DNA from: a virus
Lineage: Duplodnaviria > Heunggongvirae > Uroviricota > Caudoviricetes
IMG/VR virus record: IMGVR_UViG_2875722834_000003
Location: 1 to 39,463 of that record
DNA: 39,463 nucleotides
Direction: 5' to 3' (one strand)
Shown: one piece after another, positions 9,862 through 39,463 of the stretch
Position numbering within the stretch: position 1 is the stretch's first letter
Layout of the letters: each line of letters begins with the position of its first letter
Program-made: the position numbers and the translations under genes
The notes under the pieces: generated by a model
The model's input: only the letters and a program-made list of their open reading frames with translations
Databases searched by the model: none
What the model was told of the DNA's origin: nothing

Positions 9862-10140
9862 ATGCAACTTACAAGTACTCGCAAGAAAGCGAATGCAATT
9901 ACAAGCAACATCCTGAATCGAATTGCTGTACGTGGTCAGCGAAAGGTTGCCGACGCGTTAGGGATTAATGAATCGCAAATTTCGCGATGGAAAGACAGCT
10001 TCATCCCCAAAATGGGAATGCTTCTTGCTGTTCTTGAATGGGGTGTTGAAGACGAGGAGTTGGCGGAACTGGCTAAGAAAGTAGCCAGAATGCTGACAAA
10101 AGAAAAAGCCCCGAAGAACGGCGAATTCTTCGAGGCCTGA
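9862..10140 (+). CDS. cII: CII-type transcriptional activator (P22 C1-like)
   Basis: ORF track 9802..10140; ATG at 9862 behind the lambda-like leader TAAGGAAATACTTACAT; MQLTSTRKKANAITSNILNRIAVRGQRKVADALGINESQISRWK... aligns with lambda CII. Confidence 0.8.
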   Translation: MQLTSTRKKANAITSNILNRIAVRGQRKVADALGINESQISRWKDSFIPKMGMLLAVLEWGVEDEELAELAKKVARMLTKEKAPKNGEFFEA

Positions 10141-10174: not shown

Positions 10175-10336
10175 ATGACAAAACGTCGTAAGAAATACCA
10201 GGAAAAAGAAGAGATTCGACACCCTGATTCACCTGAGGGATTAGTGGTAGCCGCAGCAAATAACAGGGCGTTCGCAGAGCGCCTTGTTGGTGTTTACAGA
10301 CTAGCCAAAGCAGGAGTGAAGCATGGGCGTCGTTAA
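10175..10336 (+). CDS. Hypothetical small basic protein (53 aa)
   Basis: Not in ORF track; ATG 10175 with AGGAG 5 nt upstream; MTKRRKKYQEKEEIRHPDSPEGLVVAAANNRAFAERLVGVYRLAKAGVKHGRR; overlaps the O-like start by 14 nt. Confidence 0.4.
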   Translation: MTKRRKKYQEKEEIRHPDSPEGLVVAAANNRAFAERLVGVYRLAKAGVKHGRR

Positions 10337-11213
10337 GTTAGCTGATTACAGGCATAACCCTGTACAACATCAGGAGGCATCCAGTATGGGGTATGTCTCT
10401 ATACACCGCCAGTTTATGGACAGCAGGCTCTATAAGGACTCTCAGGCAGTACATCTTTGGCTTCACTTAATCCTCAAGGCTAATCACGAATCTACTGTCG
10501 TCAATACGGATATCGGTCCGATAACTGTTGATCGCGGTCAGATGATAACTGGACGCCCGTCGCTGGTCAGAGAAACATTCATCCCCGACAACAAAGTTCG
10601 GAGCTTATTACGGACTTTTGAGTCGAAAGGGATGCTTAATATTTGCTCGATGGGGAAGAAATTTAGCCTGTTTACAATCGTTAAATATGACGATTTTCAG
10701 GCAAAAAATTGTCCAACGGTTGTCCAACGGTTGTCCAACGCAAACACCAGTAATGGTGCGGCTCTCAGCGGAGATTGTCCAACGGTTGTCCAACGGTTGT
10801 CCATAAACAATAATATAAATAATATCTCTAATACTGACGTATTAGAGAGTGCCACAGCAGACAAAAAGTCTGACAAGAAAAAACCTTCCGTCAGCTGTCA
10901 GGATGTTGTCGATGCTTACCACGAAATCCTTCCTGACGCGCCAAGAATCCGCGCACTGAATGACAAGCGTAAAAACCAGATCCGAACGTTCTGGCGCAAA
11001 GCCGGAGTGATAACCCGCCAGCTTGACGGGCATGGGTTCACGATGCAGGACTGGAGAAATTATTTGAGCTACGTAGGCGAAAATTGCCGATGGATGTTCG
11101 AAGAGCGTCCAAACCATCAACGCGGAACTGTCTGGCACAAAAAGGGATTTGATTTCCTGCTTAACGATAATACCTACCTGAAAGTTCGTGAGGGTGAACA
11201 CGATGACCGATAA
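10323..11213 (+). CDS. Replication initiator (O-like / P22 gene 18 analogue) carrying the origin
   Basis: 296 aa; AGGAG leader; tandem iterons and an AT-rich tract lie inside the coding region as in lambda O; sits directly upstream of the helicase. Confidence 0.65.
   Translation: MGVVKLADYRHNPVQHQEASSMGYVSIHRQFMDSRLYKDSQAVHLWLHLILKANHESTVVNTDIGPITVDRGQMITGRPSLVRETFIPDNKVRSLLRTFESKGMLNICSMGKKFSLFTIVKYDDFQAKNCPTVVQRLSNANTSNGAALSGDCPTVVQRLSINNNINNISNTDVLESATADKKSDKKKPSVSCQDVVDAYHEILPDAPRIRALNDKRKNQIRTFWRKAGVITRQLDGHGFTMQDWRNYLSYVGENCRWMFEERPNHQRGTVWHKKGFDFLLNDNTYLKVREGEHDDR
10709..10807 (+). repeat. Origin iterons: two clusters of three 11-bp TTGTCCAACGG repeats
   Basis: Copies at 10709, 10720, 10731 and at 10775, 10786, 10797 (last copy degenerate), read directly. 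Confidence 0.85.
10709..10848 (+). promoter_or_regulatory. Putative replication origin (iterons, AT-rich tract, 24-bp palindrome)
   Basis: Iterons, then AT-rich 10803-10824, then perfect inverted repeat TCTCTAATAC-tgac-GTATTAGAGA at 10825-10848; same architecture as lambda ori. Confidence 0.65.
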
Positions 11214-12639
11214 TTTTTATGCGCCGCCCCATAGCATCGAGGCAGAGCAGGCGGTGATTGGTGGATTGCTTCTGGATGATGACAGCAGTGAGCGCGTCCA
11301 GAAGGTTCTGGTGATGCTGAAGCCTGATTCATTTTACAGCCGGCCACACAAAATCATTTTCGAAGAAATAACCAGAATGCACCGTGAGCAAAAGCCAGTA
11401 GATGGCCTGACGCTTTTCGATGAACTGGAGCGTAAATCGTTAACGGCGTCTGTTGGCGGTTTTGCTTATATCGCTGAGATCGCAAAGAACACGCCAAGCG
11501 CAGCAAACATCGTTGCTTATGCAATGCAGGTTCGCGAAACCGCAATGGAACGCTACGCCATCAACCGCATGACTGAAGCGACGGAATTGCTCTATTCCCG
11601 CAATGGAATGACTGCAACGCAGAAGTACGAAGCTATTCAGGCGATTTTCACGCAACTGATAGACCATGCAAAAACCGGATCGCGTCGCGGCCTTCGTTCA
11701 TTTGGTGAGGTCATGGAAGACTGGGTTAGCGACCTTGAGAAGCGATTTGACCCGTCAGGCGAACAACGAGGAATGAGCACAGGGATCCCATCGCTGGACA
11801 GGATGCTGTCACCGAAAGGTCTGGTGAAAGGCTCTCTGTTTGTCATTGGCGCTCGCCCTAAGATGGGGAAAACGACGCTATACAGCCAGATGGCAATCAA
11901 CTGCGCAGTGCATGAGAAAAAGCCCGCTCTGATGTTCAGCCTTGAAATGCCAGGTGACCAGATACTGGAAAAACTGGTGGGACAGAAGTCAGGTGTTAAC
12001 CCGAATATTTTTTACCTTCCGGCGACAAATGACGCTGATGACGGCTATCAGGGTGATTACGATGGTGACTTCAATAGGGCGATCGAAACAGCCAATCGCT
12101 TGAGTGAAATCGACCTGCTTTACATCGACGACACGCCGGGGTTATCTCTGGCTCAAATCGTCAGCGAAAGCCGTCGAATCAAGCGAGAAAAAGGATGTGT
12201 TGGCATGATTTTGGTCGATTACCTGACACTAATGACCGCTGAAAAGGCCGATCGCAACGACCTTGCTTACGGCATGATCACCAAAGGACTGAAGAACCTT
12301 GCCAAAGAGCTTGATTGCGTTGTTGTGCTTCTGACACAGCTTAACCGCGCACTGGAAAGCCGAACCAATAAACGCCCATTACCAAGTGACTCACGAGATA
12401 CAGGGCAGATTGAACAGGATTGCGATTATTGGGTTGGGATCCATCGGGAAGGTGCTTTTGATGACAGCGTTCCTCCTGGTGAAACCGAACTAATCCTTCG
12501 TCTCAATCGTCATGGCAATACCGGCACGGTGTATTGCATACAGGCAAATGGCGCTATTTATGACACAGACCAACAGTCTGCTGAAATGCGCCGACGTGAA
12601 CGCGAGGAACCGCAGTCCAAGAAGAAAGGAGGATTCTGA
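11203..12639 (+). CDS. DnaB-family replicative helicase (P22 gene 12 type)
   Basis: ORF track 11188..12639 starts at GTG; ATG 11203 with GAGGGTGA upstream; MTDNFYAPPHSIEAEQAVIGGLLLDD... typical DnaB N-terminus; Walker A-like ARPKMGKT. Confidence 0.85.
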   Translation: MTDNFYAPPHSIEAEQAVIGGLLLDDDSSERVQKVLVMLKPDSFYSRPHKIIFEEITRMHREQKPVDGLTLFDELERKSLTASVGGFAYIAEIAKNTPSAANIVAYAMQVRETAMERYAINRMTEATELLYSRNGMTATQKYEAIQAIFTQLIDHAKTGSRRGLRSFGEVMEDWVSDLEKRFDPSGEQRGMSTGIPSLDRMLSPKGLVKGSLFVIGARPKMGKTTLYSQMAINCAVHEKKPALMFSLEMPGDQILEKLVGQKSGVNPNIFYLPATNDADDGYQGDYDGDFNRAIETANRLSEIDLLYIDDTPGLSLAQIVSESRRIKREKGCVGMILVDYLTLMTAEKADRNDLAYGMITKGLKNLAKELDCVVVLLTQLNRALESRTNKRPLPSDSRDTGQIEQDCDYWVGIHREGAFDDSVPPGETELILRLNRHGNTGTVYCIQANGAIYDTDQQSAEMRRREREEPQSKKKGGF

Positions 12640-27203: not shown

Positions 27204-28622
27204 ATGCCGATTCAGCAACTTCCGCTTATGAAAGGTGTCGGCAAAGACTTTCGAAACGCCGACTATATCGACTATCTGCCAGTGAATATGCTGGCTACAC
27301 CAAAAGAAATCCTTAACAGCAGCGGATATCTTCGCTCATTCCCGGGCATTGCCAAACGTTCTGATGTGAACGGTATATCGCGCGGCGTCGAGTACAACAT
27401 GGCGCAGAGTGCTGTATATCGCGTGTGTGGGGGCAAGCTGTACAAAGGAGAAAGTGAAGTCGGTGATGTTGCCGGAAGTGGTCGTGTATCAATGGCGCAT
27501 GGTCGGACATCTCAGGCTGTAGGCGTTAATGGCCAACTGGTCGAGTATCGTTATGATGGCACGGTTAAAACAGTCTCAAACTGGCCTACAGACAGCGGAT
27601 TCACGCAGTATGAGTTAGGTTCTGTTCGTGACATTACGCGCTTACGCGGGCGTTATGCGTGGTCAAAAGACGGCACTGATTCATGGTTTATCACTGACCT
27701 TGAAGACGAATCGCATCCTGACCGCTACAGCGCACAATATCGCGCAGAATCGCAGCCGGACGGTATCCTCGGCATCGGCACATGGCGAGACTTCATCGTC
27801 TGCTTTGGTTCATCGACGATTGAATATTTCTCCCTGACTGGTGCAACCACCGTTGGTGCAGCTTTGTATGTCGCACAGCCATCACTGATGGTGCAAAAAG
27901 GCATCGCCGGGACTTACTGCAAAACGCCATTCGCTGATTCCTATGCGTTTATCAGCAATCCGGCAACAGGTGCGCCGTCTGTGTATATCATCGGCTCCGG
28001 TCAGGTATCACCAATCGCCAGCGCGAGCATTGAGAAAATACTACGCTCCTACACTGCTGATGAACTGGCTGATGGCGTGATGGAATCGTTGCGCTTTGAT
28101 GCTCATGAGTTGCTGATTATCCACCTGCCTCGCCACGTCCTAGTGTATGACGCATCTTCAAGCGCTAATGGTCCGCAATGGTGTGTGCTGAAAACAGGCC
28201 TGTATGACGATGTGTACCGCGCTATCGACTTCATTTACGAAGGCAATCAGATAACGTGCGGCGATAAGCTGGAATCTGTTACCGGGAAACTGCAATTCGA
28301 CATCAGCAGCCAGTACGACAAGCAACAAGAACACCTGCTGTTTACTCCGTTGTTCAAAGCAGATAACGCCAGAGTTTTCGACCTTGAAGTTGAGTCGTCA
28401 ACTGGCGTTGCGCAGTATGCTGACCGCCTGTTCCTCTCTGCAACCACTGACGGCATCAATTACGGACGTGAGCAGATGATTGAGCAGAATGAACCGTTCG
28501 TTTACGACAAACGCGTTTTGTGGAAGCGAGTCGGGCGCATCAGGAAAAATGTCGGCTTCAAATTGCGCGTTATCACGAAGTCACCTGTCACTCTGTCTGG
28601 TTGCCAGATAAGGATTGAGTAA
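27204..28622 (+). CDS. Packaged-DNA stabilisation / tail hub protein (P22 gp10 type)
   Basis: 472 aa, same length and position as P22 gp10. Confidence 0.75.
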
Positions 28623-37055: not shown

Positions 37056-38543
37056 TTATTTTTTGTATACCAGTATTGTCATATCTCCCTTATTTAAAAC
37101 TTTTTCAGGCTTCCCATTTTTAGATGAAATGGCGTTGATACACGACTGTATGTCTCCGCACTTTTCATGCCCATCAATAGCGATAAAGTATTTTCCATTT
37201 GATGGCATTGCTTCTTTACTGTACCAACTTCTCATGGTTTGATATCGAGGTGAGTTAAAATCAATAGACCCATTTTCAGAAATATCTACAGGTGCGATAA
37301 CTACCTCCCCATTGGAAGCCCAGAATGTAGTTAGGCTTTTATTCCAGTAGTCACCATAACCATAACTCAAATTATTATCTAGTAAAAACGCAGAATAATC
37401 CTTTATCTCCCGTTCAGAATCTTCGTAAGTTTTATTTCCAAAGTTAAAGGTTATAGCGCTCGACAGTACAAATAAAATGCAAATGGCATATGCTAGCCAT
37501 TTTGTCATTCTGCTATGAGCAACTGAATATACTATGAACACAAAAGGTGCAATATTCACAAAAAAGCGAGGTATAGGCTGGCTTGGGTCTGGATTGCTTA
37601 CTGTATAAGCTGAGATAATTCCAGCGGCGGAAAGTAGGGATAGCATAAAAAAATAACTAGAACTATCTTTCCTCAGAATCCCTGTTATGCATACATAACA
37701 AAATAACCCCCCCACAAGAATAAATGAGGCTATATATAGGGAGTGCTGCCTGAGGAAGAAAATGTTAAACATTTCACCAACCGTGAGAATCAGTTGATGT
37801 GCGTTCCCCTGCATTGTAACAAAATCAACAATATTAAAAGGTTGAGAGTCGATTCCCATTAATTTTGGTATTGTATGATTCAGAGCAATACCATAAAAAA
37901 TAGCAAGGAGAATGAAATTTACTAATTTTGTTTCTTTTCTGATGACAAAAATGAGTTCAGTAATCAGAATTGGAAGGAGATAAGTAGGCGCAGCCCACAT
38001 ATCTGAGGAACAAACTAATAACCCAAAAATGCCAACTATGGCATATGATAAAAGCCCTTGATCTCTATGTGCTTTCATTGCCATAAGGCATGTTAGCATT
38101 CCAAAAGCAACAGTAGAGTAGTGAGCAAATGGATGCTGAACAAATCCATCTGTCCAATATATGTGCGGCAAAGCAGCAAGAGGCACTGCGCAAACTAGTA
38201 ATGAACTTCGCTTGTTTAATTTCTTTGATATTGTAGATGCGATAATTATGACGCTGAATGCAAAAAAAGCAGATCCAAATATCAGCATTGGAGCGCCATA
38301 ACTTCCTAATATCAAATAAAACAGAAAGTATACAGGGTACAATGTAAAGTACCAGTTATCCGGTGTCGGGTTCCAATCAGTAAGAGACTTGAAACCGTGT
38401 TCCTTAAACTCAAGCCATACAACAGGACCATTTACTCCATCAGCATCTATTCTGAAGTATATATAAGAAAGATAAGAGATAGATATTGCGCATAAGAGCA
38501 ATATTACAATCTCTATTGATTTTTTATTTATTAGGTGTTTCAT
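37056..38543 (-). CDS. gtrC: GtrC-like serotype-specific O-antigen glucosyltransferase (polytopic membrane protein)
   Basis: 495 aa, multiple hydrophobic segments plus a C-terminal soluble domain; directly downstream of gtrB with ATGA overlap; about 27-33 % GC in sampled lines. Confidence 0.6.
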
Positions 38544-39463
38544 TTTTTATCCTTGTTACTTAAAATATATCTAGGCCTGTTCTTGGATTCGGTGTAAATC
38601 CTCCCGATGTACTCACCAAGCACCCCAATGCCAATAAGTTGTACGCCACCAAGAAACAGAATAGAAACCAGCAATGAGGGGTAGCCTCGCACCGGATTGC
38701 CAAAGGCGATAGTGTCTATAATCATCCATGCACCATAAATGAACGACAGGCCTGCTACCAACAATCCAATATAAGTCCACATGCGCAGAGGGAAGGTAGA
38801 GAAACTGGTTATCCCCTCAAGGGCAAGGTTCCATAACTTCCAGCCATTGAATTTTGAATCACCGGCAATCCTTTCAGCCCTGGTGTATTCAACGATATCA
38901 GTGTTCCCGCCAACCCAGCTAAGAATGCCTTTCATAAAGAGGTTGCGCTCAGGAAGAAGCTTGATGTTTTCCACCACCGCTCGGGACATCAGGCGGAAAT
39001 CACCTACATTCTCCTCAATTTTAGGGTTGCTGATTTTGTTGTGCAGCTTGTAGAACCACTCAGCGGTCTTCCGCTTAAGTCTTCCATCAGTTGATCTGTC
39101 TGTTCGTTTCGCCAGTACCATTTCAGCGCCAGCCTGCCACTTATCGATCAGATGAGGAATGACGTTAATAGGATCCTGCAGGTCTACATCGATAGGGATT
39201 ACGGCTTCGCCTGTCGCATGGTCTAGCCCTGCAAATAAAGCAGGCTCCTTGCCGAAGTTGCGGGTGAATGACAACGCAACAACTAGAGGGTCTGCAATTG
39301 CCAGAGATCTGATTATTGACTCTGTAGCATCCTTGCTGCCGTCGTTGATGAAGACTATTTCAACCTCATATTGCTGAAGATCTTCAAACTCGCGCACTGT
39401 TTTATAGAAAATTGGAATCGCGTCTTCTTCATTGAAGACAGGAACGACCAGAGATATCTTCAT
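38540..39463 (-). CDS. gtrB: GtrB bactoprenol glucosyltransferase (GT2 family)
   Basis: 307 aa [26 protein letters not shown]...; GT2 motifs (INDGSKD, DVDLQDP) and two C-terminal TM helices; start codon is the last three bases of the window. Confidence 0.85.

Follow-up and report, generated by a model that had tools for sequence, protein, structure and literature searches.

What is the function of a set of short repeats that lies within the coding sequence of a putative replication initiator? This question is raised by positions 10709-10848 of the stretch of virus DNA analysed here (record IMGVR_UViG_2875722834_000003, 39,463 nucleotides; hereafter the window), the whole of which represents a P22-like phage genome of mosaic type. 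An earlier note on this DNA had proposed that these positions form a replication origin inside an O-like gene, made up of six 11-bp iterons, an AT-rich tract and a perfect palindrome. According to the comparisons described below, they are most probably (about 85%) the theta-type replication origin of a P22/Sf6-like lambdoid temperate phage, located inside its own initiator gene. This reading is well supported, its support being entirely comparative.

The proposed location agrees with what has been annotated and published for close relatives. The rep_origin feature of Shigella phage Sf6 in GenBank (28385-28480), which lies in a gene 99% identical to that of the window, corresponds to window positions 10708-10803, and it carries the note 'putative; repeat region reminiscent of the phage lambda origin; similar to phage HK620'. 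The HK620 record contains an equivalent two-piece rep_origin, given without a note, on both clusters of its own different 11-bp repeat. Both annotations span the repeat clusters only, excluding the AT tract and the inverted repeat. In addition, six imprecise repeats of TGTCCAACGGA in gene 18 of phage L were described in 2020 as its likely origin (PMC8022706). The same paper cites Hilliker (1981) to the effect that single replication genes of P22 and L are not interchangeable while the whole region is (PMC8022706). The element is thus already known, having been annotated in near-identical phages since 2001-2004 and being in print since 2020, and what is added here is incremental: the iteron classes, the compensatory change in the inverted repeat, the copy number of a repeat cassette and an initiator that is not of the lambda O type.

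Anatomy of the repeat region

All six units share a single 11-bp register, the second cluster being offset from the first by 66 bp, that is, 6 x 11 (Table 1). When compared with TTGTCCAACGG, four units are perfect (10709-10719, 10720-10730, 10775-10785 and 10786-10796), one has a single mismatch (TTGTCCAACGC, 10731-10741) and the sixth (TTGTCCATAAA, 10797-10807) is a degenerate copy that matches at 7 of 11 positions and retains only the first seven bases. The claim of six iterons in two triplets is confirmed, the sixth unit being a degenerate one. The search of the window for the 11-bp motif with up to one mismatch gave five matches, all of them at the origin, when 0.62 were expected, and none of 100 shuffled sequences reached this number. 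The 8-bp core TGTCCAAC occurs six times (1.2 expected) and five of these copies are at the origin. The other one is on the minus strand at 322-329, a count at chance level, and no second origin-like repeat array was seen in the window by this core-motif scan.

The iterons are direct 11-bp repeats; a weak dyad, GTTG..CAAC, is found inside the units of the window class only. This internal dyad was considered as a general feature of the iterons and was rejected, as the other iteron classes lack it. Promoter-like matches over the iterons were also dropped, since the four found against 2.8 expected are at chance level. The degenerate sixth iteron, at the edge of the AT tract, reads TTGTCCATA at 10797-10805 and matches the DnaA box TTATCCACA at 7 of 9 positions; in another iteron class, that with the TGTCCAGCC core (L007 and L018-L021), the sixth unit is GTGTCCACA, which likewise matches at 7 of 9. 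This likeness could be a matter of chance.

The AT-rich stretch reported to follow the repeats was found directly after them, at 10808-10824. Taken together, the 45 nt at 10804-10848 have a G+C content of 20%, compared with 48% for the whole window, and are among the 37 lowest of its 39418 45-nt segments (the lowest 0.1%). The very lowest ones (G+C fraction of 0.18) are located at about 38500-38565, far from the replication module. As regards the 24-bp perfect palindrome that had been claimed, its arms are indeed perfect, but the centre tgac is not self-complementary and the element is consequently a 10-4-10 inverted repeat. No other perfect inverted repeat of the window combines arms of 10 nt or more with a loop of 3-8 nt, and simulated windows have 0.1 such repeats on average. 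Folded as a DNA hairpin, its two strands gave -7.8 and -8.4 kcal/mol (z of -4.5 and -4.8, respectively).

Table 1. Features of the putative origin and of the genes around it, with positions in the window (aa, amino acids; ORF, open reading frame; pLDDT, predicted local distance difference test)
Feature	Positions	Strand	Basis
Initiator gene, 296 aa, functional analogue of lambda O and P22 gene 18	10323-11213	+	ORF; PHROG 345; identity to Sf6 gene 43
N-terminal winged helix-turn-helix domain (aa 27-125), presumed iteron-binding module	10401-10697	+	AlphaFold pLDDT 70-87; helix and strand order of a winged helix
Iteron cluster 1, three tandem 11-bp units	10709-10741	+	Read directly from the sequence
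Spacer between clusters, 33 bp (three helical-repeat lengths), poorly conserved	10742-10774	+	Pairwise identity
Iteron cluster 2, two TTGTCCAACGG units and a degenerate TTGTCCATAAA merging into the AT tract	10775-10807	+	Read directly from the sequence
AT-rich tract CAATAATATAAATAATA, 17 nt, 6% GC, presumed to serve, with the AT-rich inverted repeat, as DNA unwinding element	10808-10824		Composition
Inverted repeat TCTCTAATAC-tgac-GTATTAGAGA, perfect 10-nt arms and 4-nt centre	10825-10848		Sequence
C-terminal helical domain (aa 189-296), presumed helicase-recruiting module	10887-11210	+	AlphaFold pLDDT about 80-88
DnaB-type replicative helicase, analogue of P22 gene 12	11203-12639	+	Pfam DnaB 1.8e-31, DnaB_C 3.3e-60

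Conservation of the repeats among relatives

The conservation of the region was studied in a set of 21 loci, including the window, of graded divergence (99% to 41% protein identity). The divergent loci were drawn from bacterial genome contigs, a phage collection and contigs encoding database proteins; a scan of viral contigs with the family alignment returned only loci 99-100% identical, which hold no information on divergence. Two clusters of three units were present at the same offset in 19 of the 21 loci, that is, in the window and 18 of the 20 others. The two remaining ones, the class E loci, have a different repeat arrangement yet retain the AT tract and the inverted repeat.

Between relatives, the clusters are 92-98% identical at all codon positions in three independent iteron classes, with 82-94% of their columns invariant. 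For class A, the mean pairwise nucleotide identity is 92% in cluster 1 (seven diverged relatives) and 94% in cluster 2. The spacer, which belongs to the same linker of the protein, reaches only 64-74% pairwise identity in the three classes, and the third codon positions of the folded N-terminal domain 50-70%. By comparison of these sequences, the iterons are shown to be conserved at the DNA level. Moreover, each cluster is read in all three frames, because the unit length of 11 bp cannot be divided by 3, and it does not encode a peptide repeat.

One further allele touches on the coding role of the linker. Locus L113 (664-845, equivalent to window positions 10670-10860) lacks a single 11-bp unit in cluster 2, as well as one of the six A residues at 10703-10708. 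With this double change the ORF stays open, but the linker of its protein (P0039, 292 aa) has 28 codons translated in a different frame. As it comes from a single short-read contig, this allele is only a hint of a function of the DNA itself.

Compensatory change in the inverted repeat

The AT tract is found at the same place in all 21 loci, with a length of 17-20 nt except in class E, whose layout is different, and its conservation among relatives is 84-92%. The inverted repeat starts 142-145 nt after the conserved KYDD codon, this distance being 169 nt in the two class E loci, which have a longer repeat region. Ten sequence variants of the inverted repeat were found among the relatives, all of them with arms of 9-10 nt and a 4-nt centre T[GA]A[CA]. 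In the alignment of the 11 distinct sequences (110 cells), 97.3% of the cells are paired, eight of the ten pairs have changes on both sides and none of the paired cells is a G-T (G-U) pair. None of 500 shuffles was as good, and shifting the partner reduced pairing to 30-51%. The symmetry of the inverted repeat is therefore maintained by compensatory change. Both its strict Watson-Crick complementarity and the existence of counterparts in lambda and P22 favour a role of the inverted repeat at the DNA level.

The initiator protein

By its sequence, the protein belongs to the family of Sf6 gene 43, HK022 gene 54 and phage L gene 18 (PHROG 345, 'replication initiation O-like'; E 2.2e-84 over residues 1-296). 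At DNA level, its gene shows 99% identity with Sf6 gene 43 and with its counterparts, named O, in the coliphages HK75, HK106, mEp234, IME10 and others, and 85% identity with 'gene 18' of Salmonella phages ST160/SE1. Protein identity is 99% with Sf6, HK75 and mEp234, 82% with the SE1/ST64T type and 66% with HK022. Two records deserve a comment. The O gene of phage ECP1 (KY979108, 16-907) aligns over 892 nt instead of 891, is recovered by tblastn in two pieces and is annotated as a 'hypothetical protein' plus an 'O protein', which indicates that this record carries a frameshift in the gene. The other one, L022, is a 501-bp contig in the assembly of an actinobacterium, Catenulispora yoronensis; it codes for a version of the initiator C-terminal domain with 56% identity, and is most likely a contamination from an enterobacterial prophage.

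The term 'O-like' is valid for this protein by analogy only. The Pfam family of lambda O, PF04492 (Phage_rep_O), recognizes lambda O (5.7e-36) and P22 gp18 (6.9e-38), and gave no match for the window protein, HK022 O or the CobraSix protein even at E values up to 10. Likewise, BLASTP of the initiator against lambda O gave no match, and no Pfam or NCBIfam family was above threshold. The N-terminal domain is matched by PHROG families labelled 'DnaD-like helicase loader' (phrog_2514, 1.2e-23; phrog_186, 7e-16), and in tblastn by proteins of Staphylococcus, Lactobacillus and Bacillus phages labelled DnaD-like or replisome organizer (1e-8). The fold matches of the predicted two-domain structure in BFVD are also 'replisome organizer'/DnaD-domain phage proteins (E 1e-10 to 1e-6). 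Pfam Phage_rep_org_N appeared with an E of 0.2 only, and only in relatives of the initiator. Foldseek against the Protein Data Bank (PDB) found generic winged-helix regulators (E of at least 0.03) and no specific structural relative, and the search of the PDB by sequence profile gave nothing meaningful. The C-terminal domain shows 26% identity (E 4e-5) with the C-terminal part of P22 gp18. Sequence profiles and predicted fold together identify the initiator as a probable replisome-organizer-type winged-helix protein, outside the lambda O family.

Between the two confidently modelled domains, residues 133-188 have a pLDDT below 50. The origin DNA corresponds to residues 129-176, mostly inside this segment, and the iteron array to codons 129-162 of the 296. 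In the AlphaFold model, the origin would thus encode the disordered linker between the two domains of the initiator. It had been claimed that the repeats are translated as a linker with PTVVQRLSN twice; the linker is upheld by the low pLDDT, whereas the repeated peptide is CPTVVQRLS, followed by N in its first copy and by I in the second.

Iteron classes and modular inheritance

Five classes of iteron were found at the same position, with the cores TGTCCAAC, T(G/T)TACCAGCA, TGCCAACA, TGTCCAGCC and ATTACCAA, the last one being differently arranged. Natural mosaics relate these classes to the two halves of the initiator. HK022 and the window are 48% identical in the N-terminal domain and 99% in both the C-terminal domain and the helicase; their iterons differ and their inverted repeats are identical. 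The opposite was found in locus L010, with 83% identity in the N-terminal domain, 56% in the C-terminal domain and 62% in the helicase, the same iteron class and a different inverted repeat. The recombination joint between the N-half and C-half types falls in the AT tract. In the mosaics examined, iteron class follows the N-terminal half of the initiator, in agreement with the distinct pair of initiator and iteron specificity previously suspected for this phage. The N-terminal domain and the iterons behave as one exchangeable unit, and the AT tract, inverted repeat, C-terminal domain and helicase are inherited together as the other.

Copy number of the repeat clusters

One cluster plus the spacer makes up a 66-bp cassette which is lost or duplicated in natural alleles. 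The same protein is found with 274, 296 and 318 residues, and the DNA of these forms (L110, the window and L109, respectively) differs by exact 66-bp cassettes, giving one, two and three clusters. Variants shorter by 22 residues also exist in the phage L type and the CobraSix type. Two clusters were present in all 25 isolated-phage records among the matches listed (the best 25 of 43) and in 80 of 80 viral contigs. Tentatively, these data may be joined with those on the inverted repeat: it would act by its shape, as a hairpin or cruciform at origin opening that holds the bubble or marks helicase entry, and the copy number of the cassette (1, 2 or 3) could tune initiation. We regard this combined proposal as possible, although rather less likely than its opposite.

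Points against and alternative explanations

Several points weigh against the origin reading. No published experiment on this type of origin was found in the papers searched, so that binding, unwinding and activity are inferred. Single-cluster alleles are common in bacterial assemblies, and either three units suffice or these prophages are replication-defective. Compared with that of lambda (about 40 bp), the AT tract is very short (about 17 bp), and the co-inheritance of the inverted repeat with the C-terminal domain could be due to mere physical adjacency. Finally, locus L012 shares TGCCAACA with the L006 group though their N-terminal domains are only 55-58% identical, and L016 has a different iteron despite being 71% identical to that group in the same domain. 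Since overall N-domain identity is thus an imperfect predictor of iteron class, as L012 illustrates, the comparison suggests that a few recognition residues decide iteron specificity.

It might be argued that the repeats are nothing but a duplication in the coding sequence, which would provide the protein with a repetitive linker and have no function as DNA. The 66-bp cassette is in frame and gives the duplicated CPTVVQRLS peptide, and alleles with one to three cassettes exist. However, there is no underlying peptide repeat within a cluster, the clusters are far more conserved than the spacer of the same linker, this linker is predicted to be disordered, and the layout recurs with different iteron sequences across the 21 loci. 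In addition, the L113 allele keeps an open ORF with its linker partly in another frame. We consequently consider a pure coding duplication very improbable. A second alternative accepts that the iterons bind the initiator and places the start site elsewhere, so that they would serve for control, by titration or handcuffing, as an autoregulatory roadblock to transcription or translation, or as a fork barrier like oriR of bacteriophage SPP1. The gp38 protein of SPP1 does bind a second repeat set, oriR, which was proposed to stall forks (PMC6316719), and a variable number of clusters among alleles is what would be expected of a dosage element. Nevertheless, the window has one repeat array only, the other core match at 322 being at chance level, and next to this array come an AT tract and an inverted repeat, arranged as in the lambda and P22 origins. 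A control function without initiation is for these reasons unlikely, although it is not exclusive of an origin, as the iterons could have a dual role.

The inverted repeat, for its part, could work as RNA, as a hairpin of the initiator mRNA or as a weak intrinsic terminator of leftward transcription. On the minus strand (10848-10825) it is terminator-like in a simple scan, being followed by TATTATTTAT, and selection on an RNA stem could equally yield compensatory change. However, A-to-G transitions in such an AT-rich stem would readily make G-U pairs, and there is none among the paired cells of the alignment. Only three of the ten pairs are G-C and the tail TATTATTTAT is broken by an A, in contrast to the G+C-rich stem and direct T run of a terminator; in L106 the tail is TATTAAAAGAC, with no T run. 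In addition, no Rfam family matched, and the corresponding place in the lambda and P22 origins is likewise taken by an inverted repeat whose centre is 4 nt long. A function of this element as RNA therefore has little probability.

Proposed mechanism

The origin reading allows a mechanism to be proposed. The anatomy of the region, the DNA-level conservation of the iterons, the modular inheritance of the halves and the arrangement of the initiator domains are shown, whereas we infer all the steps that follow. In the 296-aa initiator, the winged-helix domain at the N-terminus would bind the 8-bp core TGTCCAAC in each 11-bp unit. As the units are direct repeats without a conserved dyad, spaced by about one helical turn, monomers could line up head to tail along the same face of the DNA, with three of them on each cluster. 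In a comparable manner, winged-helix monomers of PhoB bind in tandem to the 11-bp direct repeats of pho boxes, although this is an analogy only. The second cluster lies exactly six repeat lengths away and in phase, which would make it possible for the two clusters to join in one wrapped or looped nucleoprotein complex. The resulting stress would melt the 17-nt AT tract next to the clusters and, with it, the AT-rich inverted repeat, jointly 45 bp at 20% GC, and the inverted-repeat hairpin formed on each strand may keep the bubble open or mark the site of helicase entry. The C-terminal domain of the initiator would then recruit the phage DnaB-type helicase encoded directly downstream, after which the host replisome would take over.

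These results confirm the most probable start of replication of the phage, as well as which protein module would read which DNA, and they leave current understanding unchanged. They may be of use in annotation and in the construction of replicons derived from phages, and also to predict how far the many P22-, HK022- and Stx-type prophages with this module are compatible in replication. Besides, the five iteron classes paired with variants of the N-terminal domain are a natural series on how a winged helix reads an 8-bp core, and the ten inverted-repeat variants are material on the role of the long-noticed inverted repeat of lambdoid origins.

Genomic context

The gene order around the origin is that of P22, Sf6 and HK620: a cI-type repressor on the minus strand, cro, a cII homologue, a small ORF, the initiator and the DnaB-type helicase. 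The helicase gene overlaps the stop of the initiator by 11 nt; its start at 11203 was taken from the annotation of Sf6 gene 44, while the longest ORF starts at a GTG at 11188. There is no gene between initiator and helicase, and hence no separate helicase-loader gene at that place. The small ORF (53 aa, 10175-10336) overlaps the start of the initiator, and its position is kept in Sf6 (gene 42), HK022 (gp53), HK620 (hkaW) and P22 (orf48). A strong terminator-like hairpin (14 pairs and a T run) is present on the minus strand at 10106-10138, at the end of cII, which is where P22 has its annotated oop terminator. It is overlapped by a weak Rfam match, to ctRNA_p42d, that is below threshold. The divergent cI/cro switch is only about 1.3 kb from the origin, and GC skew in lambdoid phages is expected to follow mainly the direction of transcription.

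Comparison with known origins

The earlier note had called for comparing the iterons with the origins of lambda, P22, Sf6 and HK620, and had stated that the architecture mirrors that of lambda with a different iteron sequence. The order of the parts does mirror lambda. In both phages the initiator gene contains the origin at its middle, between the half that binds DNA and the half that binds the partner, the gene has the same operon position after cII, and the parts follow each other in the same order: iterons, an A-rich AT tract and an inverted repeat centred on 4 nt. The iterons themselves are short, direct and contiguous, unlike those of lambda, which has four iterons of about 19 bp (ATCCCTCAAAACGAGGGA) with an internal dyad (ATCCCTC..GAGGGAT) and a spacing of 20-24 bp, compared with six direct 11-bp units in the window. 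Lambda also has an A-rich tract of about 40 bp and then a 12-4-12 inverted repeat with one mismatch, where the window has 17 bp and 10-4-10. The lambda O protein belongs to PF04492, whereas the initiator of the window is outside this family and without detectable sequence similarity to O. Finally, lambda O works with the P protein and the host DnaB (PMC3349717), while the phage of the window encodes a DnaB-type helicase of its own.

P22 is closer in this last respect, with the initiator directly followed by a DnaB-type helicase. Its origin, annotated in gene 18, likewise combines repeats with an AT tract and with CCCCC-taaa-GGGGG, which is a short inverted repeat, and the C-terminal domains of the two initiators are distantly related (26%). 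However, P22 has four iterons of about 20 bp (ATTTACCAGATCGGTAAAAC) unrelated to those of the window, and the N-terminal domain of gp18 is in the lambda O family.

The closest matches are the putative origins of the family itself. In Sf6, the iterons are as in the window except for two bases at unit junctions, and what follows them is the same. The six units of the phage L type (ST160/SE1) have the core TGTCCAACG, as in the window, and both the AT tract and the inverted repeat are shared too. HK620 and HK022 have the same layout of two clusters of three units and an identical inverted repeat, but different iterons (TGTACCAGCAG, ATTACCAGCAA and ATTACCAC). The iteron TGTACCAGCAG / ATTACCAGCAA of HK620, HK022 and VT2-Sakai goes with an N-terminal domain 48% identical to that of the window.

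Outside the lambdoid phages, gp38 of SPP1 can be considered, by analogy, the best-studied counterpart of the initiator. The SPP1 origin oriL is located in gene 38 and bound by gp38, and it has direct repeats as well as an unwinding element rich in AT, and employs a DnaB-family helicase (PMC6316719). The likeness to the window comprises an origin within the organizer's own gene, an N-terminal domain probably akin to the DnaD-like and replisome-organizer families and a DnaB-type helicase. SPP1 differs in having a separate loader, gp39, and a second repeat set, oriR, while the window has no loader gene between initiator and helicase.

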